The notes below the pieces were generated by a model, which ran no database searches, was not told where the DNA came from, and saw only the letters and a list, made by a program, of their open reading frames with translations. Positions 917 through 19,465 of a DNA stretch of 64,000 nt are shown one piece after another (the first letter of the stretch is position 1; every line of letters begins with the position of its first letter). The position numbers and the translations under genes are program-made. This DNA is from an uncultured Chloroflexia bacterium (GTDB lineage Bacteria; Chloroflexota; Chloroflexia; Thermomicrobiales; Thermomicrobiaceae): contig CAWBKX010000001.1 of the NCBI GenBank assembly GCA_963789565.1, positions 11,004 to 75,003 of the forward strand, read 5' to 3'.

Positions 917-2455
917 CTAATTCCGTGCGGCGCGACCGGGTTCGGCGGGGTTACTGGCGAGTGCCAGCACGGCCTGAGCCCCCACCGCCACCTCCGAGCC
1001 AATCGTCCCATCGGTATTCACCAGGACGGCCGAGGGTATTCCGGTCGCTCCGAACGCTCTCCCGGTGGTGAACCCCTGATCCAGCAGCAGCGTCGAACGC
1101 AGTCCCAATTGCTGGTTGGCCTCTACCGTCCCGGTGCTCACGATGAGCAGCTTGGGAGCATCCTTGGGTCGACGCGCCTCCCAGTCCTTGAGATCCCCCA
1201 ACATGCGTTGGCAGAACCCACAACCCGGATTCCAAAAAAGGAGGAGCGTGCGTTCCCCGCGGAAGCCGGCCAGCTTGACCGTCTCGCCCGTGAGGTCGGG
1301 TAACGCCACCTTCGGTGCCGCCGTCCCGATGCGACTGGTCGGTGGTGGCGCTGAACCGTTGCCATGGCCATTGCCATTGTTGGCTGGTCGCGGAGCGGCC
1401 ACGGGCACGGCTGGCTGCCCGCTCGTGCGCAGCACCAACTGCCGGATCTGCTCGGCGCCCATGGCCAGCGGACTCTGAATGCGTCCATCCGTCCCGATCA
1501 GGACGGCCCCCGGTGTGCCAGTCGACTGATAGGACTCGGCCACTTCGCGATCCTGCTGCAAGAGGATCTGGGTCACGCCATGCTCGGTTCCCTTGGCACG
1601 GTTCTCGTCCGCCGATCCCCGGCTGATGAGGGCCAGGGTGAATCGTCCCGCATGTTCCCGTTGCCATGTGCCGATCTCGGGCAGTAAGGCGTTACAGGGG
1701 CCACAGTGGGGATCACTGAAGAGGAGGAGGGTGGGTTTCCCGGCTGCGCGCAAGGCGTCCAGCGTGAGCGTTTCCCCGTGGAGGCCACTGAGGCGGAACG
1801 CGGGAGCCAGCGAGCCCACCGGCAGTCCCGCCGCGGGGGCGGCCGGAGCGGCCGGCCGTACAGCGACCCCATCCACTCCCGTGCCCGCTTCCAACGTCTC
1901 GACGCGGGCCAGCAAGCGACCATTCTGCTGCAAGAGATGCAGCAGCAACCAGCCTTCGCCGATGATGGCCAACGTCAGCAGCACCCCAACGACGATGCCC
2001 AGGTCTTCCATGCCCGTCCGATCTCCCATCCAGCCCACGGCACTGGTGCCCGCATCCCCATGCCCCGCCACCACCACGAACCCAGCAATCAGGGACAACA
2101 CCCCGTTGCGGGCGAGGGTGGACCAGCCGACCGGCTCGGAGTGGAGTTGGCCGAAGCAGTGACAATCAGGTGCCTGACCCCGGGCCATGGTGACGCCGAC
2201 GCCGGCGATGAAGAGGAGCAAGAGGGTCAAGGCGGCCAGACCACCCCACCAGGCCGAGGCCACTGGGATGAGGACGACCGCCGAGGCCAGCTCCGCCAGC
2301 GGGAGCAGCAAACCAAAGGGACCGGCCAGAACCGAGGGCACGCCAAAGCCAGTCATGGCCGCCCGTGATCCCGACAGATCGGCCAGTTTGGCCAGACCGG
2401 CCACCACGAAGACGACCGCCAAGATCAGCCGTGCCGCCAGTAATACCAAATCCAC
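917..2455 (-). CDS. MauE/DoxX-type membrane domain fused to two TlpA/ResA-like thioredoxin domains (thiol-disulfide oxidoreductase)
   Basis: GTG start preceded by AGGAGG. The hydrophobic N-terminal ~130 aa carry the PDCHCFG motif (MauE-type CxCFG), followed by an extra TM. Two thioredoxin folds follow, with CGPC and CGFC active sites in TlpA-like context (LLLFSDPHCGPC, LLLFWNPGCGFC). Confidence 0.75.
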   Translation of the reverse strand: MDLVLLAARLILAVVFVVAGLAKLADLSGSRAAMTGFGVPSVLAGPFGLLLPLAELASAVVLIPVASAWWGGLAALTLLLLFIAGVGVTMARGQAPDCHCFGQLHSEPVGWSTLARNGVLSLIAGFVVVAGHGDAGTSAVGWMGDRTGMEDLGIVVGVLLTLAIIGEGWLLLHLLQQNGRLLARVETLEAGTGVDGVAVRPAAPAAPAAGLPVGSLAPAFRLSGLHGETLTLDALRAAGKPTLLLFSDPHCGPCNALLPEIGTWQREHAGRFTLALISRGSADENRAKGTEHGVTQILLQQDREVAESYQSTGTPGAVLIGTDGRIQSPLAMGAEQIRQLVLRTSGQPAVPVAAPRPANNGNGHGNGSAPPPTSRIGTAAPKVALPDLTGETVKLAGFRGERTLLLFWNPGCGFCQRMLGDLKDWEARRPKDAPKLLIVSTGTVEANQQLGLRSTLLLDQGFTTGRAFGATGIPSAVLVNTDGTIGSEVAVGAQAVLALASNPAEPGRAARN

Positions 2456-2529: not shown

Positions 2530-3816
2530 CTAGCAATTGGTCAGGCATTGGCCGTAGCAACAGACACCGCTGTTTTCGCATGGAGTTCCGTTGGGTTGGA
2601 CCACACATGCTCCACCCTCACACAGGCTGCAGCTAACGACGCCGCACAGCGTCCCATCTGGAACCGAAACGCATTGCTCACCCTCGCAGAAATTGCAGAG
2701 AACGCTGCATGGTCCGCCCGAACAGGTTTCGCCCTGGCCACATTTCGTGCCGTCCGTCTGGCCGGCGCAGATCCCGCAGTTGTCCTGACAAGTACCACTA
2801 CAGCAGACCTGGCCACTCCCGCAGTCGGTGTTGTCCTGTGCGTGAACGCACGCGCCAGACGTCGGGTCGCACGTCTGACATTCGGGACAGGTGACGTTCT
2901 TACACAGGTCCTGGCAGGCGCAGGTTTCCGGGTCCTGTAACTGATCGGGTGGGCAGCTTGCCGTGCACTGACAACGGCAGATGTCGAGGCTGAAGGTCTT
3001 TCCTTGCGGACAGGTGCTGCTGACGCATTGGTCCTGACAGCAGAGTCTTGTCGGATCGGTGGCGTCGCAGGCCGCGCCGTCGATCTGGTTCTGGCAAACG
3101 TCGCACTGGCAGGTGGTCGGATCAGGCGGTTGGCCGTCTGAACATGCTGGAATGCAGGTGTTGTTGCAGCACGTGAAGTCTGGCCCGTCACAGTTCTCGC
3201 ACCCCGGGCAGCAATCGCAAGCGCCCTTCTGCGCGTCCGTGTAGGCGTTTCGTCCCGTCGCCGTCCGAGACACCGCGAGGTAGTAGAGACGGGCATCGAC
3301 GCTGATGCAGACGGTGCGCATATAGGTCTGGTACCAGCTTCTGCCGGGATAGGCTGCGGCGCATTGGGCGGACAGGTCGTTGAAGAAGTTGGTGTCGCAG
3401 GTGGACTTGGTGCTGTTGCACGTGTCGTAGCAGATGTCGTGGTTGTTGCAGGCGGGCGTGAAATCGACATTGCGCAACGGCCCGATGCGGTTGGGGATGA
3501 GGTACCGGGCGAAGCCATTCTCAGGACCGCAGCCGTTGAATGCGGGTGTATGACCAGGGTGCGGCACGCGGTTCGGGCAGAGGTCGAGGTTTGCGATGGG
3601 ATACCGCGGTTGGATCCCAGCCGGTTCACAGCATTGAGTCGTTGGATCGTAGGGCTCACCGTTACAGGTGGGAGCCGCGGCGAACGCGCCCGGTATGCGG
3701 ACCGAACGCCCAATGACCACCGTGGCGACGCCGGCCAGCAACCCCTTCATCACCTGGCGACGCGAGGTGGCACGTCCCAGAGTGCGGGTCAAGTCGTCGA
3801 AACGCCAATCTTGCAT
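2530..3816 (-). CDS. Tat-leader secreted cysteine-rich protein with group-XII-like phospholipase A2 domain
   Basis: I trimmed the start to the ATG at 3816 (GAGGA upstream), because the paralog at 6084 begins with the same MQDWRFDDLTR leader. The twin-arginine motif is TSRRQVMKGLL plus an h-region. It has NGCGPE...ACNNHDICYDTCNSTKSTCDTNF (sPLA2 HD-CY core). By hand count the C-terminal ~215 aa contain 49 Cys. Confidence 0.75.
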   Translation of the reverse strand: MQDWRFDDLTRTLGRATSRRQVMKGLLAGVATVVIGRSVRIPGAFAAAPTCNGEPYDPTTQCCEPAGIQPRYPIANLDLCPNRVPHPGHTPAFNGCGPENGFARYLIPNRIGPLRNVDFTPACNNHDICYDTCNSTKSTCDTNFFNDLSAQCAAAYPGRSWYQTYMRTVCISVDARLYYLAVSRTATGRNAYTDAQKGACDCCPGCENCDGPDFTCCNNTCIPACSDGQPPDPTTCQCDVCQNQIDGAACDATDPTRLCCQDQCVSSTCPQGKTFSLDICRCQCTASCPPDQLQDPETCACQDLCKNVTCPECQTCDPTSGACVHAQDNTDCGSGQVCCSGTCQDNCGICAGQTDGTKCGQGETCSGGPCSVLCNFCEGEQCVSVPDGTLCGVVSCSLCEGGACVVQPNGTPCENSGVCCYGQCLTNC

Positions 3817-3985
3817 GAGAGGTCCTCGCGCTATCGAACGAGACGGCCCGCGACTCACCGCCGGAACGGTCGAGTCGGTGGCGAAAACTGACGCCACGCG
3901 TACTGCGCAACGACAACGACGGTGGATACGCGGATGGCCGGAGCGATCCCGCTCGCTCCGGTCATGGCACTGTAACCGGCCGGCG

Positions 3986-4111
3986 TTACTTGGGCGTTAT
4001 AAGGCCGTTCATGGCCTGCCGCGAGCCGGGAAGATCCACCAGGTTGGCCAGATCCGGCACCGCGAAGACGACCGCCAAGTTTAGCCGCGCCGCCGGCAAG
4101 AGTACGTCCAC
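3986..4111 (-). pseudogene. Truncated remnant of a second MauE-like gene (first ~41 codons only)
   Basis: The minus-strand translation is VDVLLPAARLNLAVVFAVPDLANLVDLPGSRQAMNGLITPK*. It aligns with the N-terminus of the 917-2455 product (MDLVLLAARLILAVVFVVAGLAKLADLSGSRAAMTGFGVP). The two share a 17-nt identical run, cttggcggtcgtcttcg. It then hits a stop. Confidence 0.55.
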
Positions 4112-4251
4112 TCAACCCCCCAAACTAAGGTCTGCCTGCAACCTGGGCCAGGCGGCGCTTTCAACCGTTCGGACGTGGAACTATCGGTATCACTCATTCG
4201 GTGGACGTCGCGGAGTGCCTCCGCCGTCATCATCGCATCGCTCATATACCG

Positions 4252-6084
4252 TTAATCCGATGCTCCTCCGTGGTTTACACAGCAGGCCGCGTCGTCCTGA
4301 CTCTGCGAGCAACAGATGTAGCTTCCGTCGGCGCAGTAGGCGTAGACGAAATCGGCTGCACAGCAGGTGCCATCTGCGTCCGCATACGGGGTGTCGCAGC
4401 ACATCGACACCGTTTGCTCCGGATCGTTGGCGCACATTTGGCCGTCGGAACAACATACGTGATTGCCGTCGATGATGCAGAACTGATCCACGGAACAACA
4501 GGCTCCGCTGTCGTCGGGTGCTTGGTCGGTTGGACAGCAGACGGCAGTGCCCCCAGATGTATAGCCGCATTGTTCAGTCGCTGCGTCGCAGCAGGTATTG
4601 CCGCAGAGCGTTTGTGTTCCAACAGTGCAGCAGACACCGTTTTGGGAACCGCACAGTGTCTCGCCATTGTCGCCAGCGCAGCACGGCTCACCGTCGTAAC
4701 AACAGATTTGACTCTCGAAGAGGTCCGGAGGGCACTGCTGCCCGTTCTGGCCGGCGGAACAGGGTCCGCATTCAGCGCCAGCGGTGCAGACGCCATGACA
4801 GCAGACTTGATTCGAACCGCAGGACGTGTTGTCCGGCTCTGGATCGCACGTTCCGCCAGCTCCGCATGTCGTGCAGGTCGGACAGCTGCGCTGAGCGTCA
4901 GGTACGCATGTACCCCCATTGCACTGTCCACAGGCACCGCAGTTCTCACCGTCGACGCTGGGATCGGCCACACAACCACTATCACCCTGCAATTGACAAG
5001 GCGGGCAGCCACCTTTTCCGTTGCCATCGCCGCATTCGCATGTCCGCGGATCCTGTGCCTGACCCTCGGGACACGTGACAGGCGGACATGTGCACGTGCA
5101 ACTGTCGTAGTCGAATGTCTGATTGCCGACACATACGATCGACACGCATGCACCTGAGCAGCAGCCCAAGCCACTGCCGCACTCCGTGCCATTTGACGAC
5201 GGTGTGCATTGTCCGGATTCAGGGTCACATTCCTGGCAGGAGTCGCACTCCTTCGGGACGCACGGGCCGCTCGGGTCATTGGGACTATAAACATCGCACG
5301 GTCCGCAGATCGGATCGCAGCTCACGAGGAACGTCAGCGGGTTCACCGCACAGCGCTCGTTCGCTTGACAGCATGTTCGGTTGAACCAACTTGAACAGAT
5401 CGTCGTATCCGGCGGGCACTGGCACTCACCGTCGATACAGGACAGATCGTCGCAATCGTGCCCGCAGCGTCCACAATTCTTGGGGTCGGATTGCAGATCG
5501 GAGCAGGTGACGCTGGAGGATGGATCACTCAATCCGAACGGCAGCCCCGGACTGACGTGTCTACAACACGTATTGCCGGCAGCGCAGCACCCGTCACCGC
5601 AGCATGATTCGCCTGTCTCGCAGCAATACTGAGGCTGGCCGATCGGCAATCCAAAACCCGTGTTCGGCGGACACTGTACCCCTGATTCACAGCAGTTCGA
5701 TCCACGACAGCAATGATCGTCAAGACACTGTTCGCCGCGCGGACATTGGGCCCGGTCGCATGCCGCGAGTGCATTGAAGTAATTTCGATCCACGAGCATT
5801 TTGCATACAAAGTCGATCACCGTGCCCGTGTTGCCGCCCTCATTCTCTCCCAAATGCGATCCGCAGGCGGTCATGTTCGCGTCACGGTTTGCTTTGGCAT
5901 CCGAGTAGCATTGATCCAGCGCCGCGCTGGAGCACGTCGCGCCCACCGCGCCAGCCTCGGGCACACTGATGGAACGACCAATGACGACGGCCGCGACGCC
6001 GCCGAGCAATCCCTTCAGCACGCCGCGCCGTGAGGTCGCCGTGCCCAACGATCTAGTCAGATCGTCGAATCGCCAGTCTTGCAT
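4252..6084 (-). CDS. Tat-leader secreted hyper-cysteine-rich protein (paralog of 2530-3816, no PLA2 motif)
   Basis: ATG at 6084 with GAGGGG upstream. The leader MQDWRFDDLTRSLGTATSRRGVLKGLLGGVAAVVIGRS is near-identical to the paralog. I count about 96 Cys in ~610 aa. It shares modules with the paralog (ECGSGLGCCSGAC vs DCGSGQVCCSGTC; CPEGQAQDPRTCEC vs CPPDQLQDPETCAC). Confidence 0.8.
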   Translation of the reverse strand: MQDWRFDDLTRSLGTATSRRGVLKGLLGGVAAVVIGRSISVPEAGAVGATCSSAALDQCYSDAKANRDANMTACGSHLGENEGGNTGTVIDFVCKMLVDRNYFNALAACDRAQCPRGEQCLDDHCCRGSNCCESGVQCPPNTGFGLPIGQPQYCCETGESCCGDGCCAAGNTCCRHVSPGLPFGLSDPSSSVTCSDLQSDPKNCGRCGHDCDDLSCIDGECQCPPDTTICSSWFNRTCCQANERCAVNPLTFLVSCDPICGPCDVYSPNDPSGPCVPKECDSCQECDPESGQCTPSSNGTECGSGLGCCSGACVSIVCVGNQTFDYDSCTCTCPPVTCPEGQAQDPRTCECGDGNGKGGCPPCQLQGDSGCVADPSVDGENCGACGQCNGGTCVPDAQRSCPTCTTCGAGGTCDPEPDNTSCGSNQVCCHGVCTAGAECGPCSAGQNGQQCPPDLFESQICCYDGEPCCAGDNGETLCGSQNGVCCTVGTQTLCGNTCCDAATEQCGYTSGGTAVCCPTDQAPDDSGACCSVDQFCIIDGNHVCCSDGQMCANDPEQTVSMCCDTPYADADGTCCAADFVYAYCADGSYICCSQSQDDAACCVNHGGASD

Positions 6085-6311: not shown

Positions 6312-6680
6312 CACGTCCATTCTCGAATTGACACATTCATGTATTTCTCGAAAAGCATTCCACTGAACGCACCAGGCACAATAAGCTGATTGTCGTTTCT
6401 GGACTGATTTTCACGTTCCGGCGCACCGGCATTTTGCTTGAGCGCCAAATGAACAAACGGCACCCAGGTATCTGCAAAATCCGACAGCACCACTAACACG
6501 AAAATAACGCTCCATTGTTATGGTGAGCAATTAGGGGCACCGACTTTCGGACTCGGTGGGCCATTTTGCCGTCAAATCAGGGAACATCGGCTTTTTACGC
6601 GTTGGCGGACCTGGAAGCAAACGCGCGTATGGCTTTCAGGTGACGGGCCGGTGAGTCTGTCGGTAAGGGATAGGGAATAC

Positions 6681-9215
6681 ATGATTCAACGCGTTGGGCG
6701 CTGGCTCGGGGTGCTTCTCCTGGTAAGCGGCCTGGTGGGTGCCGTCATGCCAGCAAATGCGCTTGCCGCCACCAGCCACTACTACACGCTCCAGGTGCTG
6801 CCGATGCCGTCGGGCACCGATGGGTGGCAAATGGGAGGCAGTATTGTCGACGACGCTGAGGACGTCGTGAGTGCCGCGACTGAGCCCGGGAATTTTCAGC
6901 ATGTGCTGATCTGGAAGAGCGGATCCAGTTCGGCTATCCAACCGGCGAGCTACGCCGAACTGGTGAACGTGACACACGGCGGAACGGTCCTCTACTGGAA
7001 TCTTTCCGACGGCCAGTTGCATCAATACGTCATTTCCACCAGTACCGACTCGCTGGCGACCAACGTGCTCCTAGGTGCGGCCGCCATGAACGCGTCTCAA
7101 GTAATGGTCGGCACGTATCTGCCGTCGAATAGTCAGATTCCTGCCGCCGGTAAGGCACCACTCGGTTCGACCAACGTGAACCAGATCACTGATCTCGGAT
7201 TCGGCATCGACTCGGGTGCCAATGACATCAACGATTCCGGTGACGTGGTCGGCTACGGATCGTGTTCAACCGCAACGCAATGTGCTTACTACTACGATCA
7301 CTCGACGCACACGGCGACGTCGCTCGGTCCAGACGGCAGCGATCAAACCGCGACCATGCAGGCGATCGCGATCAACGCATCAGGAGAAGCGGCCGGTAAC
7401 TCGTGGTTCAACTACGGCTACAACCGTCCACCCTTCAAATACACAAAAGCTGGGGGAGTCGAGTTTCTGGGTATGGGGACATCGCCCACCGGCATCGCGA
7501 ATGACATCAATTCCGCGGGCGATATCGTGGGCCAGGTCACCGGCTTGGGCGCCGTCCTCTGGCCCTCCGACTCGACCGACCCCATCGAGCTGAGCAAACA
7601 GATCGTCCTTAGCAATCTCACCGGGTGGAGCCTCGATTACGGGGAGTCAATCAACGACGATGGCGTCATCACGGCACTCGGCTCGCTGAGTGGCCAGTCG
7701 ACCACATTCGTACTTGCTCCAGCACTCGACGGGACCGCACCGAGGAGCACCGGGACAATCGTTGATGGGTCCGACACGCTTGCGACCCCGAACGGCGCGG
7801 GCTGGTACAACGACTCCACGCTGAAGCTCCGAATTCAGGTCCAGGACAACGAAGACGGATTCGGAGTCAAAAATCTGACGCTGACCGTCAACAGTAGTAC
7901 GTCAACGCTCGCCACGGGCAATAACGGCCAACCGTTCGATGCCGTTACATTCTCGGAAGGCACCAACTCAGTCAGCTACTACGGTACAGACCTCGCAGGT
8001 AACTCCGAGACTGCTCACAATCTCACTGTCAAATACGACAAGACCGCGCCAACCTTTGATTGTGTCGGGGTTCCGACAGGTTGGACCAAGGGAAATATAG
8101 ACGTCACGTGTACACCCATCGACACGGTTTCTGGCGTCGCCAGCCCAATCGGCACCTTCAATCTCTCGACAAACGTTCCGGACGGCACGGAGACGGACGC
8201 CGCGACGAGCAACTCAGTCACGGTGTGTGATGTCGCCGACAACTGTTCTGACGCGCAGCTCAGCGGATTGATGATCGACAACAAGGCACCCGACGTCAGT
8301 TGCGCTGCGACCGACGACGCATGGCACGGCAGTGACGTCGTCCTGAACTGCACGTCAACGGACTCGGGTTCCGGTCTGGCAAACGACTCGGATGCACAGT
8401 TCACCTTATCGACCAACGTCGCCAGTGGCAGCGAGACCGACACCGCCGGCACCGACAGTCGGCAGGTCTGCGACGCCGTCAACAACTGCGTCACGGTTGG
8501 ACCGTTTGGGCCGGTCAAGGTTGACAAGAAAGGTCCGGACCTCAGCGGCGCTCCGACCAGTGCCGCCAATGAAAACGGCTGGTACGACCAGTCCGTGACC
8601 ATTCACTGGACGTGCTCGGATGCCGGTTCAGGCGTCAATGCGTGCCCGGATGACAAGCAAATCACAACAGAAGGCACCGGACTGACTGCGTCAGCAAACG
8701 CCGTCGATAACGTCGGCAACCAAACCACGGCGGACAGCAGCCCAGGCGTGAACATCGATTTGACGGCGCCCACGGTGTCATATACCGGCAATCAGGGGAC
8801 ATACAGCGTTGATCAGACGGTCAACATTGCCTGCAACGCCAACGACGCGCTCTCTGGGATCGACACGTCCAATTGCCAGGACATCAACGGCCCCGCGTGG
8901 TCGTTCGCACTGGGTTCCAACGAATACCGTGCGTCGGCGATCGATAAGGCCGGCAACGTCGGCAATGGCAATGTCAGCTTCACCGTCTCGGTGACGCCGG
9001 ACAGTTTGTGCGCCTTGACCAAGCAGATGGTCCGGAACAAGACGAGCGGGACGCTTCTGTGCCAGCCCTTGATCGGCGCGAAGTTCGCCGAATCAATGCA
9101 CATTCCGTTCGTGAAGCACATGTACGTTCAGGTCTATGTCATCAAGGTCAAAATGGAGTGGAGCCTAACTCCGAGCCAGAAGTCGACGCTGATCCGGCTC
9201 GCGCGAGGTTTGTAG
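6681..9215 (+). CDS. Large secreted protein: HAF-type extracellular repeats plus about five Ig-like repeats and a helical C-terminal tail
   Basis: ATG at 6681. The signal peptide is MIQRVGRWLGVLLLVSGLVGAVMPANALA. It has repeated xINDSGDVVGYG / AINASGEAAGNS / DINSAGDIVGQV / SINDDGVITALGS units. Repeated D(K/N/L)(T/K)(A/G)P ... C(T/S)..D..SG(V/L/I) modules follow. Confidence 0.75.
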   Translation: MIQRVGRWLGVLLLVSGLVGAVMPANALAATSHYYTLQVLPMPSGTDGWQMGGSIVDDAEDVVSAATEPGNFQHVLIWKSGSSSAIQPASYAELVNVTHGGTVLYWNLSDGQLHQYVISTSTDSLATNVLLGAAAMNASQVMVGTYLPSNSQIPAAGKAPLGSTNVNQITDLGFGIDSGANDINDSGDVVGYGSCSTATQCAYYYDHSTHTATSLGPDGSDQTATMQAIAINASGEAAGNSWFNYGYNRPPFKYTKAGGVEFLGMGTSPTGIANDINSAGDIVGQVTGLGAVLWPSDSTDPIELSKQIVLSNLTGWSLDYGESINDDGVITALGSLSGQSTTFVLAPALDGTAPRSTGTIVDGSDTLATPNGAGWYNDSTLKLRIQVQDNEDGFGVKNLTLTVNSSTSTLATGNNGQPFDAVTFSEGTNSVSYYGTDLAGNSETAHNLTVKYDKTAPTFDCVGVPTGWTKGNIDVTCTPIDTVSGVASPIGTFNLSTNVPDGTETDAATSNSVTVCDVADNCSDAQLSGLMIDNKAPDVSCAATDDAWHGSDVVLNCTSTDSGSGLANDSDAQFTLSTNVASGSETDTAGTDSRQVCDAVNNCVTVGPFGPVKVDKKGPDLSGAPTSAANENGWYDQSVTIHWTCSDAGSGVNACPDDKQITTEGTGLTASANAVDNVGNQTTADSSPGVNIDLTAPTVSYTGNQGTYSVDQTVNIACNANDALSGIDTSNCQDINGPAWSFALGSNEYRASAIDKAGNVGNGNVSFTVSVTPDSLCALTKQMVRNKTSGTLLCQPLIGAKFAESMHIPFVKHMYVQVYVIKVKMEWSLTPSQKSTLIRLARGL

Positions 9216-9476: not shown

Positions 9477-11003
9477 CTACGAATCCGCCCAGAACCGCGA
9501 GTTTCGACCCGATTGATCGTTTCCCTGGTTCTCCGACTCGCTCTGTTCCAACATACGCGCTTGCGCAAACCCAAGGATCGTGACGAAGACCACCCCCCCG
9601 ATCAGATTTCCCAGGAGTGCGGGAACGAAGTTGCCCGTGAACCAGTCTCCTATGGAGATCGGAGCGCCTAGCATCATGGCCGTGAAGATTTCCGGTGCCG
9701 AAATGACCACGTGGTTGAAGTGAGCCGCCACGATCAGGAAGCCGGTCATCCAGATGATGACCAATCGTGGTCCGAGACCGGTGGCTGCCAGAATCAACCA
9801 GGTCATGATCGTCATGAGCCATCCAGCAAAGATGGCTTTCATAAAGGCATCCCAGAACGGGTAGTTGACCTTGTCCACCGCGACCTGTTTGAGAAAATCG
9901 GCCGAAGGACCGCTCAGCACGCCAGTGCGGCTCATGAGGAATGCCGCGATGACGCTTCCCACCATGTTGAAGAACAGAACGTAGCCCCACAGCTCCAGCA
10001 GATCTCGAAGCGTGCCCCGACCGCGGATGACTCCCGTGATTGGAAACAGGAAATTCTCAGTGAAAAGCTCGCCCTTGCCCACCAGCACGATGACGAATCC
10101 GATGGGGAATACGAAGGCTGCCAACCACTGCGCGCGTTCGAATCCAAGACTCGCCATCCACGGTCCAGCGGTCCATGACATGGCGATGGCTCCGAAGCTC
10201 ACACCAAACGCTCCGAGCAGAGCGGTGATCGCGTGCGCCGGATTGAGACGTCGCAGACGTCTGGCGCCGACCTGAGCCGCAGTTTCAATGACTTCCGGAG
10301 ACTCCGCGCCGAGTGCGTTTTCGCGTTCATCCGATGCCTGCTTCTCGGTTCTCGTTTCGACTCTCGTTTGCGCGCGGTCGCGCATGCGGGCCACATCGTC
10401 GTCGATAGTGCTGAGGCGATCACGCGAGATACGAAACTGGTTTCGCGCCGAAGACGAGATCAGATCCTGCTCTTCGTCGACCAACTCTGACAGGAGCCGG
10501 CTCAGACGCTCCCCCGCGCGACCAATTTCGCCCATCAATCCGTGAAGGTCGGGAGGCCCGGCCCCGTCCTGTCGGTGGGGCGGTTTGGATCGAGACTCGT
10601 TCGCCTGGACGTCGCGCTCAATCGACAGGAGCACGAGGTGAAAGACGTCCACAACCTGCGACAGCAACACCGCGGCGAAATCAGCGGCGGAGCGATCCTT
10701 TCGCCCTGAGAATCGGGCAAATGCACGACGCACGGGAGTCAGCGTCCGAGGCTGAAGTACGGCCAGAAAGCTATTGCCGACCAGGATGTCGAGCCGATCC
10801 CACGTGATTGCGTTCTCATCGGGCAGTGAAGGGACGTTGCAGCGGATGTGAAGCTGCTGAGCATCATCCGACCACGCTAGTCCCGGCGCGATCTGCCGAT
10901 CCTGAACGTGTTCAAGGAGTGATTCGTCGATTGCGAATCGCGCGGAAAGCCGCTGAAGCTCGTCGTGGCTCGGTCGCACGAGTTCCACGAAATCGAACGG
11001 CAA
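9477..11003 (-). CDS. Formate/nitrite transporter (FNT) family channel with ~255-aa CorA-like N-terminal cytoplasmic domain
   Basis: The C-terminal half has FNT hallmarks: VGKGELFTENF, FNHVVISAPE (central His) and LLGNLIGGVVFV. The N-terminal half has a CorA-like pattern (DILVGNSFLAVLQPR ... DFAAVLLSQVVDVFHLVLLSIERDVQ and long charged helices). Confidence 0.75.
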   Translation of the reverse strand: MPFDFVELVRPSHDELQRLSARFAIDESLLEHVQDRQIAPGLAWSDDAQQLHIRCNVPSLPDENAITWDRLDILVGNSFLAVLQPRTLTPVRRAFARFSGRKDRSAADFAAVLLSQVVDVFHLVLLSIERDVQANESRSKPPHRQDGAGPPDLHGLMGEIGRAGERLSRLLSELVDEEQDLISSSARNQFRISRDRLSTIDDDVARMRDRAQTRVETRTEKQASDERENALGAESPEVIETAAQVGARRLRRLNPAHAITALLGAFGVSFGAIAMSWTAGPWMASLGFERAQWLAAFVFPIGFVIVLVGKGELFTENFLFPITGVIRGRGTLRDLLELWGYVLFFNMVGSVIAAFLMSRTGVLSGPSADFLKQVAVDKVNYPFWDAFMKAIFAGWLMTIMTWLILAATGLGPRLVIIWMTGFLIVAAHFNHVVISAPEIFTAMMLGAPISIGDWFTGNFVPALLGNLIGGVVFVTILGFAQARMLEQSESENQGNDQSGRNSRFWADS

Positions 11004-17017: not shown

Positions 17018-19465
17018 ATGATCATGGATGGCCGCGCCGTCGGCAGCTATCGAATTGAATCGTGGCTGGGTTCAGGTTCGACCGGCGCAGTCTATCGTGC
17101 CGCACGTCTCGACGGCGGCGAGTCTGACGCCGTCAAGATGATTGATGCCGATAACCTGTCGAAGTCGGAACGAGAAAAGTTCCTCAAGCGCGTCGAAGCA
17201 GCCAGATCGTTGCGTCACCCGCACATCGTCGAGATCGCCGAGACCGGAGAGGTTGGCAAGCGCATCTACGTCGCAATGGAGCTGTTCGAGCACGGCTCCG
17301 TGCGCACACTCCTCGACCGAGCGCGCGGAACGGGCCAACCGTTGCCGCTCGATTTGGGACTGGACCTGGTCAAACAGGCCGCGGATGGCATTGGGTTCGC
17401 CCACGAAAATGGTGTTATCCACGGTAATCTCAAGCCGGAAAACCTCCTGCTCAAATCGTCGACCGAGTCGCGGTCCGGTGCGTTTTGGATCGTCAAGATC
17501 GCCGACTTTGGATTCGCGTCGCACGCAAATTCGATCGATGCATCAGCCACGACGCAGACCGATTCGCGTGCCTATCAATCGCCTGAGGTTCGTTCCGGCG
17601 CGCCGCCGACTCTTCGCGACGACGTGTTCGCTCTCGGCGCAGTCCTCTACGAGATTGCAACTTCTCGCGCGCCCGCAGTGTCATCCACCAGTTCCGGTGA
17701 AGCTCGAAGCATTACTCCGCCTCGACGCCTGAATCCAGCCATACCGCTTGCACTGGAAACGGTCATTCTGCGCTGCCTTTCGACGGATCAGGCCGAACGC
17801 TTCGCCAACGGCTCCGAGCTTGCGACTGCCCTCGCATCTGTCCTGGGCAACACCACGCCGGGTAGTAGCTCGATCTCGATCGACGCGAAGAGGACCGCTG
17901 CCCTGGAGGTCGACGCGATCGAATATCGCTTGTCGCTCAACCAGGGCGGACAGGCCTCCATCGAATTGCACATCTCCAATCGCAGCGATGTCCCAATCGA
18001 CGTTCGCGTCGAGGCTGAGTCGACGGAACTGCTGGGGTTTCCGGATCTTCCACGGCTATTGCGCCTCGACGTGGAGCAACGCAAATCCATTTCGATCCAG
18101 GTTCGACTCGACACCGATCATCGTCCGCTTCCGGGTGAGTATCGTGTCCAACTACACGTGCGTCCGACGGAAGCGGGGGCCAGTGTCATCGAATTGCCGA
18201 TCGCCATCATCGTCCAACCGGAGATGACCACGCAGCTGAGTTTGCAGCAGGTCGGTCGCGAAACAAGCAGGCAAGTGGTCTTTCACGCGACGGTGACGAA
18301 CCACGGAGATCGTGTCGAGCATGTCTCGTTTCAGGGACGTGATGTGGAGCACCGACTTCGCTTTCGCTTCCGTCCCGAGATGGTCACCATCGAACCGGGA
18401 CGCTCTCGGACCATCACTCTCGAGGTGACGGATCGAGCGCGGCAACCGGGATCGGAACACGTCAGCTTCGAGGTCACGGCGCACTCATCGACGGGCCCAT
18501 CCGCGTCGGCTACTGGTGAATTCGTTCGCCAACTCCCCGAATCGGCGGGAACGCGTCGCGTGTTGGTCGGGTTTGGCGCGCTCGGCACGATGGCCGTTGT
18601 GCTTGCGGTCGTGTTGCTTGCCACCTTCATGCGAGCAGGCTCGTCTCATTCCATCACCGACGTGCCGACACCGACCGTCGCCCTTTCGCGAACCGAAACA
18701 TCGGCGTCAGTGCCGACGACTACACCATCACCGTCACCGAGCCCCACCGAACCAGCTCCGACACCAACTCCCACGGTCACGCCCACTCCGACCGTGACTC
18801 CGACGACTGACACTCCAATTGCGGTGAAACAGGTTGCGACAAGCAAAAACGTCGTGGCGCTTACCTTCTCGGTGGGCGACGATCCAACGTCGGTTGCCAA
18901 GGTGGAGACTATCCTGACACTGCTCAAAGCTCGCAACGTCGTCGCGAGCTTCGGAATATCAGGTATTTGGGCGCAGGCTCATCCGGATCTGGTTCGCCAG
19001 ATCGTCGCAGGTGGCAACCAGCTGGTCAACGAGACGTACGACCACACATCGTTCACCGGGAGCAGCGCCCCGGATTCAGCCACGTCCACCGCTGCGCGCG
19101 TGAATGAACTGACACGTGCCGACCAAATCTTCAAACAAATCACGGGCGAAACCACGGCCCCCTATTACCGACCTCCGTACGGCGACATCGATTCCGGCCC
19201 AAACTCCACCGTCGAGCGGGACGCCGCCACAGCCGGATACTCTGTCGCGGTCCTCTGGTCGATCGACACCATGAGCTGGTCGTCGACGCAAACGGTCGGG
19301 AAGATGATCGCGTCCGCCAGCAAGGCCGGGCCAGGGGACATCATCCTGTTCAGTCTAGCGCCGGCCGGAGGCGACAAAGACGTCTCGGCGCTGCCACAGG
19401 TGATCGACAATTTACGAAGTGCTGGATTCGCTTTCGCCACCGTAAAGGATCTCGTCGGGCGCTAG
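17018..19465 (+). CDS. Hanks-type Ser/Thr kinase-like protein (HRD replaced by HGN), two beta-sandwich domains, TM, PT linker, NodB-like ectodomain
   Basis: Kinase motifs: G-loop [14 protein letters not shown] lysine, [10 protein letters not shown]. The catalytic loop reads IHGNLKPEN at 17420-17428. The TM is [23 protein letters not shown]. The C-terminal region has [10 protein letters not shown] ... YRPPYG ... SIDTMSW, as in NodB. Confidence 0.8.

Follow-up and report, generated by a model that had tools for sequence, protein, structure and literature searches.

Does a bacterial gene that resembles the group XII secretory phospholipases A2 (sPLA2s) of animals encode such an enzyme, and what would a bacterium use it for? 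Of the sPLA2 groups, XII is understood least, and there is debate about its physiological role. The question is raised by a gene near the start of a 64,000-nucleotide stretch of DNA from an uncultured Chloroflexia bacterium (assembly GCA_963789565.1, contig CAWBKX010000001.1), which as a whole is called the window in the following. An earlier reading made from the letters alone (the sequence-only reading) had noticed there the core of an animal-like sPLA2 within an exported protein that also carries a cysteine-rich (Cys-rich) module. Our computational follow-up indicates that the gene probably encodes an exported, Ca2+-dependent sPLA2 of group XII (PF06951), which would serve to attack foreign membranes. 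With it a known family, which is very large in bacteria, gains a new and uncharacterised member.

Relation to group XII phospholipases

We compared the PLA2-like head of the window protein with profiles of known sPLA2 families. When the segment comprising amino acids (aa) 46-207 was excised, PF06951 (PLA2G12) matched with 40.0 bits and an expectation value (E) of 5.4e-10 over profile positions 98-177 of 184; for aa 50-172 the score was 37.4 bits. Both values exceed the gathering score of 34. The prokaryotic PLA2 family PF09056 reached 23.5 bits for aa 46-207 and 17 bits for a shorter segment, in both cases below its gathering score of 29.4. This agrees with the sequence-only reading, in which the domain had been called group-XII-like and distinct from the Streptomyces/fungal type. 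Judged from the sequence, the link to the prokaryotic and fungal sPLA2s (PF09056; groups XIII/XIV) appears to be one at superfamily level only.

In a scan of the full-length 428-aa protein the PF06951 match was not reported, and Pfam gave there only a weak signal for twin-arginine translocation (Tat). Probably the Cys-rich tail triggers the bias filter of HMMER, which then masks the match. Because the full-length scan loses the match, bacterial PLA2G12 members may be systematically under-annotated. NCBIfam contains no model for the PLA2G12-type domain. When relatives of the window protein were sampled, PF06951 was matched by all of them (36 of 36).

A profile of these relatives, run against a database of 5.8 billion sequences, recovered the group XIIA sPLA2s of Coccinella, Bactrocera and Amyelois with E of 1e-17 to 1e-19, together with proteins of Halocaridina and Menopon that are group XIIA by their UniRef label. 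Already in BLASTP the window domain was 35% identical to the Coccinella XIIA enzyme over 127 aa (E 2e-13). Aligning the bacterial with the animal XIIA profile by hhalign provided a probability of 99.7% and an E of 5.6e-26 over 116 columns that span from C-P-N-R-V to A-C-D-C-C-P. Among the chains in the PDB, the bacterial family profile matched 4aup (E 3e-9) and 1faz (E 1e-7) as well as 7ygk and 8k1w, with the HD residues aligned. A profile was needed for significance here, since the best E of a single-sequence phmmer search was 0.18. The profile search against PLA2 families that had been proposed as a check in the sequence-only reading hence returned significant matches (PF06951, 4aup, 1faz). 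Together these sequence comparisons support the assignment of the head of the window protein as a relative of the animal group XII sPLA2s.

The likeness to animal group XIIA (PLA2G12A) extends over a core of ~120 aa, which runs in both cases from C-P-x... via NGCG and HD-I-CY to A-C-x-C-x-P. Within it we found the common blocks C-C/A-N-x-HD-I-CY-x-TC-N-x-x-K-x-x-CD-x-x-F and Y-x-D/S-A/S-Q-K-x-AC-x-C-x-P. The spacing HD-x-CY-x-TC-x3-K-x2-CD-x2-F, which the sequence-only reading had likened to that of the human enzyme, is likewise present in the insect XIIA enzymes. The helical layout is alike as well, and of the 14 Cys within aa 51-203 of the window protein 10 fall into columns shared with the insect XIIA proteins. 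The mature human group XII enzyme has 14 Cys in 7 disulfides. In contrast to the animal enzymes, the window protein possesses an additional N-terminal beta-hairpin subdomain (aa 48-79), for which no alignment to the animal enzymes was obtained (the hhalign match begins at CPNRV). It furthermore has Ala in place of the first Cys of the CC pair, which some bacterial members keep, a Tat-like instead of a eukaryotic signal peptide, and the Cys-rich tail. Insect group XIIA proteins in turn have a long N-terminal helical propeptide-like region that the window protein is without.

Size and architectures of the bacterial family

No identical copy of the window protein was found in public assemblies, and a word-seeded search provided 7 relatives of it. 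An exhaustive profile search over 1.84 billion cluster representatives provided 6,605 proteins at E <= 1e-3, of which 2,164 had E <= 1e-10 and more than 150 scored better than 1e-26. The closest orthologues (L001-L005, from metagenome-assembled genomes (MAGs) of Chloroflexia) were 85-57% identical, with 84-94% identity in the domain. More distant copies were found in FCPU426, Phycisphaera, Holophagales, cyanobacteria (Mastigocoleus, Rivularia) and several Gammaproteobacteria. As regards the "animal" label of the sequence-only reading, the homology to animal XIIA holds, whereas the oddity of its occurrence in a bacterium was overstated, given a bacterial family of 6,605 clusters.

Nevalainen et al. 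are said to have reported pfam06951 in bacteria already in 2012, and the JGI annotation already names some relatives "Group XII secretory phospholipase A2 precursor". A PLA2G12 domain was also described by Danov et al. 2024 in ML_1 of Halogeometricum, a predicted toxin candidate of an extracellular contractile injection system (eCIS) (PMC11297309). According to the same work 96% of the InterPro PLA2G12 occurrences are eukaryotic (PMC11297309), a view that probably undercounts the bacterial members.

Domain architectures were counted for the best 150 of the 6,605 cluster representatives. An RR pair was present within the first 60 residues in 80 of them. A tail of at least 40 aa was found in 85, with a Cys content of at least 8% in 67 of these tails, and in 53 the domain was located at the extreme C-terminus. 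Due to these signal and tail counts, the architecture of the window protein is the commonest in the family. Other contexts were seen as well. In a Phycisphaera MAG (L007, 3-515, plus strand) the domain follows directly after an Rhs-associated core (TIGR03696, 50.3 bits vs a cut-off of 32.5). Being positioned directly C-terminal to the Rhs core, the PLA2G12-type domain of L007 is considered to be the tip of a polymorphic toxin. The domain also occurs, inside or at the C-terminus, in giant proteins (1,281-2,778 aa) alongside LRR, Big_5, Glucodextran_B and PKD domains.

At tail-less PLA2G12 genes we observed small open reading frames (ORFs) of 85 or 59 aa (L017 6816-7073, L018 1705-1962, L021 5889-6068, L022 1887-2066), which overlap the PLA2G12 stop codon by ~10 nt. 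These ORFs could be partner or immunity genes whose translation is coupled to that of PLA2G12. No counterpart of them was found in the window.

Catalytic residues and their conservation

A translation check confirmed the peptide given in the sequence-only reading: positions 3301-3669 encode exactly residues 50-172, and the His-Asp dyad placed at 3436-3441 consists of His126 (CAC, 3439-3441) and Asp127 (GAC, 3436-3438). The surrounding motif C-x2-H-D-x-C-[YWF] occurs only a single time in the six frames of the window. A GCG(P/S) element resembling a Ca2+-binding loop had also been suspected ahead of the dyad; it is found at aa 94-97 and is nearly invariant in the family. In the window protein this loop reads N94-G-C-G-P, compared with NGCGS in insect XIIA, and by homology we infer a role of NGCG in Ca2+ binding. 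We further take Asp141 to be the second catalytic Asp of the Streptomyces (1FAZ/1LWB) and bovine enzymes, i.e. the equivalent of Asp85 in Streptomyces PLA2 and of Asp99 in pancreatic PLA2. In Streptomyces PLA2, Asp85 is the partner of the catalytic His.

The family columns that are invariant or nearly so comprise N94-G95-C96-G97, C123, H126, D127, C129, Y130, C133, C140-D141, C152 and C170, and at the C-terminal end Q196...C200-x-C202-C203 is conserved as well. C-x2-H-D is kept in 148 of the 150 best representatives; one exception is truncated and the other has Gln for His. A family member with such a replacement is P0107 (CCNTQDCCY), in which the remaining domain is intact. P0107 may be a bacterial case of a naturally inactive member, as is PLA2G12B in vertebrates. 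For the PLA2 domain of the window protein, the ratio of nonsynonymous to synonymous substitution rates (dN/dS) against five orthologues was 0.04-0.07, which shows purifying selection.

Predicted structure of the domain

Modelling of the domain by AlphaFold2 (AF2) with a 60-sequence alignment resulted in a predicted local distance difference test (pLDDT) score of 89.9 and a predicted template modelling (pTM) score of 0.84. This model replaced an earlier AF2 run with 8 sequences, in which pLDDT was 61, the N-terminal half was unmodelled and the fold search provided E >= 0.5. Two short beta-hairpins (aa 48-79, pLDDT > 90) are followed in the model by four helices. The best Foldseek match in the PDB was the Tuber borchii PLA2 4aup with a probability of 0.99, a template modelling (TM) score of 0.55 and a root mean square deviation of 4.2 Å over 110 columns (TM 0.55 for 4aup_A and 0.49 for 4aup_B). 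The next match was the Streptomyces PLA2 1faz (probability 0.30, TM 0.34); all others were at 0.20 or below. The best matches of a confident model are thus solved microbial sPLA2s. The fold evidence for an sPLA2 is supportive but moderate.

With Tuber borchii TbSP1 (4AUP) and the Streptomyces violaceoruber PLA2 (1FAZ/1LWB) the window protein has the superfamily in common: the GC loop and C-x2-HD align, as do the next two helices. The microbial sPLA2s of PF09056 differ in that they have HD-F-G-Y and few disulfides, whereas the window protein has HD-I-C-Y-x-T-C and ~7 predicted disulfides within the domain.

Layout of the gene and its product

The positions of the features are collected in Table 1. 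The ORF of the PLA2G12-type gene is intact; it starts with ATG, preceded at ~7 nt by a Shine-Dalgarno-like GAGGA box, and its stop codon is at 2530-2532. Its GC content equals that of its neighbours (0.60-0.64), and the GC profile of the window revealed no island. Promoter and terminator scans provided nothing above the expectation from shuffled sequences. The PLA2G12-type domain corresponds to aa 48-206 and holds 15 Cys.

Table 1. Positions of the PLA2G12-type gene, its parts and the related neighbouring genes in the window.
Feature	Position	Strand	Description
PLA2G12-type gene, whole	2530..3816	-	428-aa precursor, 60 Cys: signal, PLA2G12-type domain, Cys-rich tail
Signal region, aa 1-46	3679..3816	-	conserved n-region MQDWRFDDLTRTLG, twin Arg, h-region GLLAGVATVVIG, basic c-region
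Twin-arginine pair R19-R20 in T-S-R-R-Q-V-M-K	3757..3762	-	from sequence and family consensus
Bacterial-only N-terminal subdomain, aa 48-79	3580..3675	-	C-x-G-x-PYDP-x-TQCC ... PI-x-x-L
Catalytic core in common with animal group XIIA sPLA2, aa 80-204	3205..3579	-	CPNRV ... AQKGACDCCP
N94-G95-C96-G97, presumed Ca2+-binding loop motif	3526..3537	-	nearly invariant in the family
His126-Asp127, catalytic dyad in C-N-N-H-D-I-C-Y	3436..3441	-	aligns with HD of 4aup, 1faz, 7ygk, 8k1w
Asp141 in C-D-x-x-F	3394..3396	-	nearly invariant column, aligned with "ID" of 1faz
Cys-rich tail, aa 207-428	2533..3198	-	45 Cys, at least 4 copies of a ~30-aa unit
MauE membrane domain and two thioredoxin folds, one gene	917..2455	-	74 bp downstream of the PLA2G12-type gene, same strand
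Upstream paralogous gene	4252..6084	-	610 aa, 96 Cys

The signal sequence has the layout MQDWRFDDLTRTLGRATS-RR-QVMKGLLAGVATVVIGRSVRIPGAFA, and its basic c-region contains RSVR. Around the twin arginines, T-S-R-R-Q-V-M-K fits the Tat consensus S/T-R-R-x-F-L-K. The 29 relatives with an FDxLxR...RR pattern have the consensus FD-x-L-A-R...[ST]-R-R-x-[AV]-L-K, with an h-region and A-W-A behind it. Cleavage is predicted from the sequence at an AxA site, AFA|AAP, after residue 46. Given these sequence features, Tat export of the window protein is plausible.

The module behind the domain had been described in the sequence-only reading as ~215 aa with 49 Cys. This holds within the choice of the boundary: counted from aa 207 the tail comprises 222 aa and 45 Cys, and the number of 49 is reached when the four Cys of the CDCCPGC junction are added to it. 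The repeat unit of the tail reads C-x2-C-...-[DN]G-x-x-C-...-CC-x-G-x-C, and scanning the tail in three pieces provided no Pfam match. The tail evolves fast, with 37-65% aa identity to the orthologues compared to 85-94% for the PLA2 domain.

The upstream paralogue shares with the PLA2 protein one Cys unit and a signal that is 67% identical over 57 aa, and it has a different head of ~75 aa. Neither its three pieces nor the ~75-aa head alone had a Pfam match. Over 281 aa its tail has 61% identity to that of the L005 PLA2 protein, a Chloroflexia orthologue. Since the tail of the paralogue resembles that of a PLA2 protein, heads and tails are shuffled between the genes.

The adjacent MauE-thioredoxin gene

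Downstream of the PLA2G12-type gene, with no terminator-like site seen in between, lies a gene whose product combines MauE with two thioredoxin (Trx) folds. Pfam detected MauE (PF07291, 88 bits), Thioredoxin_2 and AhpC-TSA/Redoxin; MauD-like and ResA-like matches were found as well. The product contains the motifs C98-H-C100-F-G (2156-2164), CGPC (1694-1705) and CGFC (1211-1222). According to a recent report, MauE can replace DsbB in E. coli and has a CxC active site followed by a conserved F-G, and fusions to thioredoxin-fold domains account for 8.2% of the MauE proteins (bioRxiv 10.64898/2026.03.05.709764). As far as can be judged from its sequence, the MauE-Trx-Trx fusion is likely a dedicated disulfide-forming oxidoreductase of the DsbB/DsbA-like kind.

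The pairing with a PLA2G12 gene recurs elsewhere in unrelated loci. Directly behind the distant PLA2G12 protein P0161 of L019 comes a MauE-Trx orthologue that is 43% identical over 488 aa and in which C98-H-C100-F-G, CGPC and CGFC are identical to the window. With the MauE-Trx protein as query, 80 metagenomic loci were retrieved, among which L055, L071 and L098 have an adjacent PF06951 gene (45-56 bits). L019, L055 and L071 have the PLA2G12 gene upstream of MauE-Trx, which is also the order in the window; in L098 it is found downstream. We then considered Cys-rich ORFs, defined by a minimum of 150 aa and a Cys content of 10% or more. An adjacent ORF of this kind on the same strand was found within 1 kb in 25 of the 80 loci, and in 16 of the 25 it had an FDxLxR..RR N-terminus. 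The near flanks of MauE-Trx contained 25 Cys-rich ORFs in 180 kb vs 1 in 256 kb of the farther flanks. One protein adjoining MauE-Trx (L033, 7836-10487, plus strand) has 879 aa, 122 Cys, the same type of signal and a Peptidase_M15_4 head, after which many C-x-[DN]-L-x-[TS]-D-x-x-[NH]-CG-x-CG repeats follow. Peptidase_M15_4 is D-Ala-D-Ala carboxypeptidase-like, i.e. a cell-wall hydrolase. The Cys-rich exoproteins beside MauE-Trx may be natural clients of a MauE disulfide pathway.

In L019 we observed in addition a second PLA2-like protein of 425 aa (3273-4550, plus strand) with a C-terminal CNLHDAGYGGY and a faint PF09056 match, whose gene sits upstream of the pair of PLA2G12 and MauE-Trx, at a distance of 1.4 kb. 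With this product beside the PLA2G12 gene, L019 holds two phospholipase types.

An arrangement of this kind is known from MauA, methylamine dehydrogenase's small subunit. MauA carries a twin-arginine leader and its maturation depends on MauE and MauD. Alike is the presence of a small disulfide-dense exported protein beside MauE and a thioredoxin-fold, MauD-like partner. In the window, by contrast, one polypeptide unites MauE with two Trx folds, further mau genes are missing, and the clients would be hydrolase-headed Cys-rich exoproteins rather than a quinoprotein subunit.

Proposed mechanism and alternative explanations

The following course of events would account for these features. The precursor would be exported by its twin-arginine-type signal and cut after AFA46. 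Outside of the cytoplasm its 60 Cys would be oxidised to up to 30 disulfides, for which the neighbourhood suggests the MauE-Trx-Trx fusion as the likely catalyst. By homology, the head (aa 48-206) would then hydrolyse the sn-2 ester of glycerophospholipids, whereby His126 would act as general base held by Asp141, and Asp127 together with the N94-G97 loop would hold Ca2+. More speculatively, stability or targeting might come from the Cys-knot tail, which is shuffled and evolves fast.

As role of the enzyme, an attack on foreign membranes of competitors or prey, or lytic feeding, is most likely. We favour foreign-membrane attack because of the Rhs and eCIS associations of the domain and the lytic heads of the sister proteins. 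In the sequence-only reading the protein had been suggested to be a lipolytic effector or toxin that is secreted and whose Cys module is disulfide-knotted, and this agrees with the use of the domain as Rhs toxin tip and with the likely disulfide-forming enzyme encoded next to it. With Rhs and other polymorphic toxins the system has in common that the PLA2G12-type domain serves as a C-terminal tip in the Phycisphaera MAG and that heads and tails are shuffled among paralogues. It differs from them in that the window protein has no Rhs, PAAR, contact-dependent inhibition (CDI) or eCIS part; only a signal peptide precedes the domain.

A number of results weigh against an exported membrane-attacking enzyme of this kind. 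ML_1, the one prokaryotic candidate with PLA2G12 that was tested, was not toxic to yeast (PMC11297309), and our literature search found no biochemical characterisation of any bacterial group-XII-type protein. No immunity gene is evident in the window, and no immunity-like gene was seen adjacent to the PLA2G12-type gene. Regarding export, the Tat models remained below their cut-offs, with 15.3 bits vs 22.7 (E 0.02) for PF10518 (Pfam TAT_signal) and 15.5 bits vs 16.7 for TIGR01409, and Tat export of a protein that needs 30 disulfides is counter-intuitive. The structural similarity is moderate (TM 0.55, Foldseek E 0.05), and no group XII chain was among the matches of either PDB search (profile, Foldseek). 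None of the five closest orthologues (L001-L005) has MauE-Trx, the glycoside hydrolase family 1 (GH1) gene or the 854-aa neighbour of the window within 8 kb, and MauE-Trx was also absent from four other contexts. Because of these absences we consider the pairing of PLA2G12 with MauE-Trx as recurrent but not obligatory, and claim no obligatory operon.

Several of these points would also agree with the same enzyme in another role, as a digestive or scavenging phospholipase or in the remodelling of envelope lipids of the producer itself. Near the PLA2G12-type gene in the window there are no immunity, Rhs, type VI secretion system (T6SS) or eCIS genes, the protein bears a general-export signal instead of a contact-dependent delivery domain, and the neighbours are housekeeping-like (GH1 beta-glucosidase, transporters, acyltransferase). 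The use of the domain as Rhs toxin tip in L007, the peptidase M15 head of the sister protein in L033 and the rapidly diversifying, shuffled tails, which are more typical of conflict proteins, argue however against such a role, and we regard it as unlikely, though it is the strongest of the alternatives.

A catalytically dead PLA2-like binding scaffold would be comparable to vertebrate PLA2G12B, which is without the catalytic His. P0107 demonstrates that a relative with Gln at this position occurs in the family. The window protein itself, however, keeps His126, Asp127, Asp141, Tyr130 and NGCG, whose columns are nearly invariant across the family, and has a dN/dS of ~0.05, such that a loss of activity is highly improbable.

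Chance resemblance of a Cys-rich low-complexity sequence and recent gene transfer from an animal, for which one might invoke the PF06951 match vanishing in the full-length scan and the eukaryotic dominance in InterPro (PMC11297309), were both rejected as scarcely conceivable in view of the high significance in four independent tests (Pfam, profile search, BLASTP, hhalign), matched columns that include the non-Cys residues N, G, H, D, Y, T, F and Q, a family of 6,605 clusters with RR-type signals in 80 of the best 150 and bacterial domain combinations, a GC content equal to that of the neighbours, and relatives in Chloroflexia, Holophagales, Phycisphaera, cyanobacteria and Gammaproteobacteria.

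Implications

Beyond the preferred reading of an exported group XII sPLA2 that attacks foreign membranes, we tentatively consider a broader one, which has some chance of being correct. The PLA2 gene would be one client of an undescribed MauE-Trx-Trx module for export and oxidative folding of disulfide-knotted antimicrobial enzymes, present in Chloroflexota and other soil bacteria. Its clients would be Cys-rich exoproteins (10-20% Cys), many with Tat-type signals, that carry interchangeable heads such as PLA2, peptidase M15 and others. As part of this joint reading, animal group XII might have come from the bacterial family and not the reverse.

The bacterial family, with a compact core of ~160 aa and thousands of sequences, offers material for structures, for covariation analysis and for the origin of group XII. 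Less expected was that Cys-rich, often Tat-like exoproteins are recurrently paired with a MauE-thioredoxin fusion. For the DsbB-like MauE, which was reported in 2026, the neighbourhood points to very demanding natural clients with up to 30 disulfides. What MauE oxidises outside of methylamine metabolism thereby becomes directly testable.

Other genes in the window

Divergently upstream of the Cys-rich gene pair lies an 854-aa ORF (6651-9215, plus strand), whose product is apparently secreted, rich in Ser, Thr, Asp and Gly, and has no Pfam match. A 508-aa ORF (9477-11003, minus strand) joins a CorA-like Mg2+ transporter cytoplasmic region (aa 4-213) to a formate/nitrite transporter domain (aa 237-477), an unusual fusion provided that the ORF is real. 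Farther along, an 815-aa protein (17018-19465, plus strand) combines a Ser/Thr protein kinase (aa 11-261) with a C-terminal polysaccharide deacetylase (aa 607-742).

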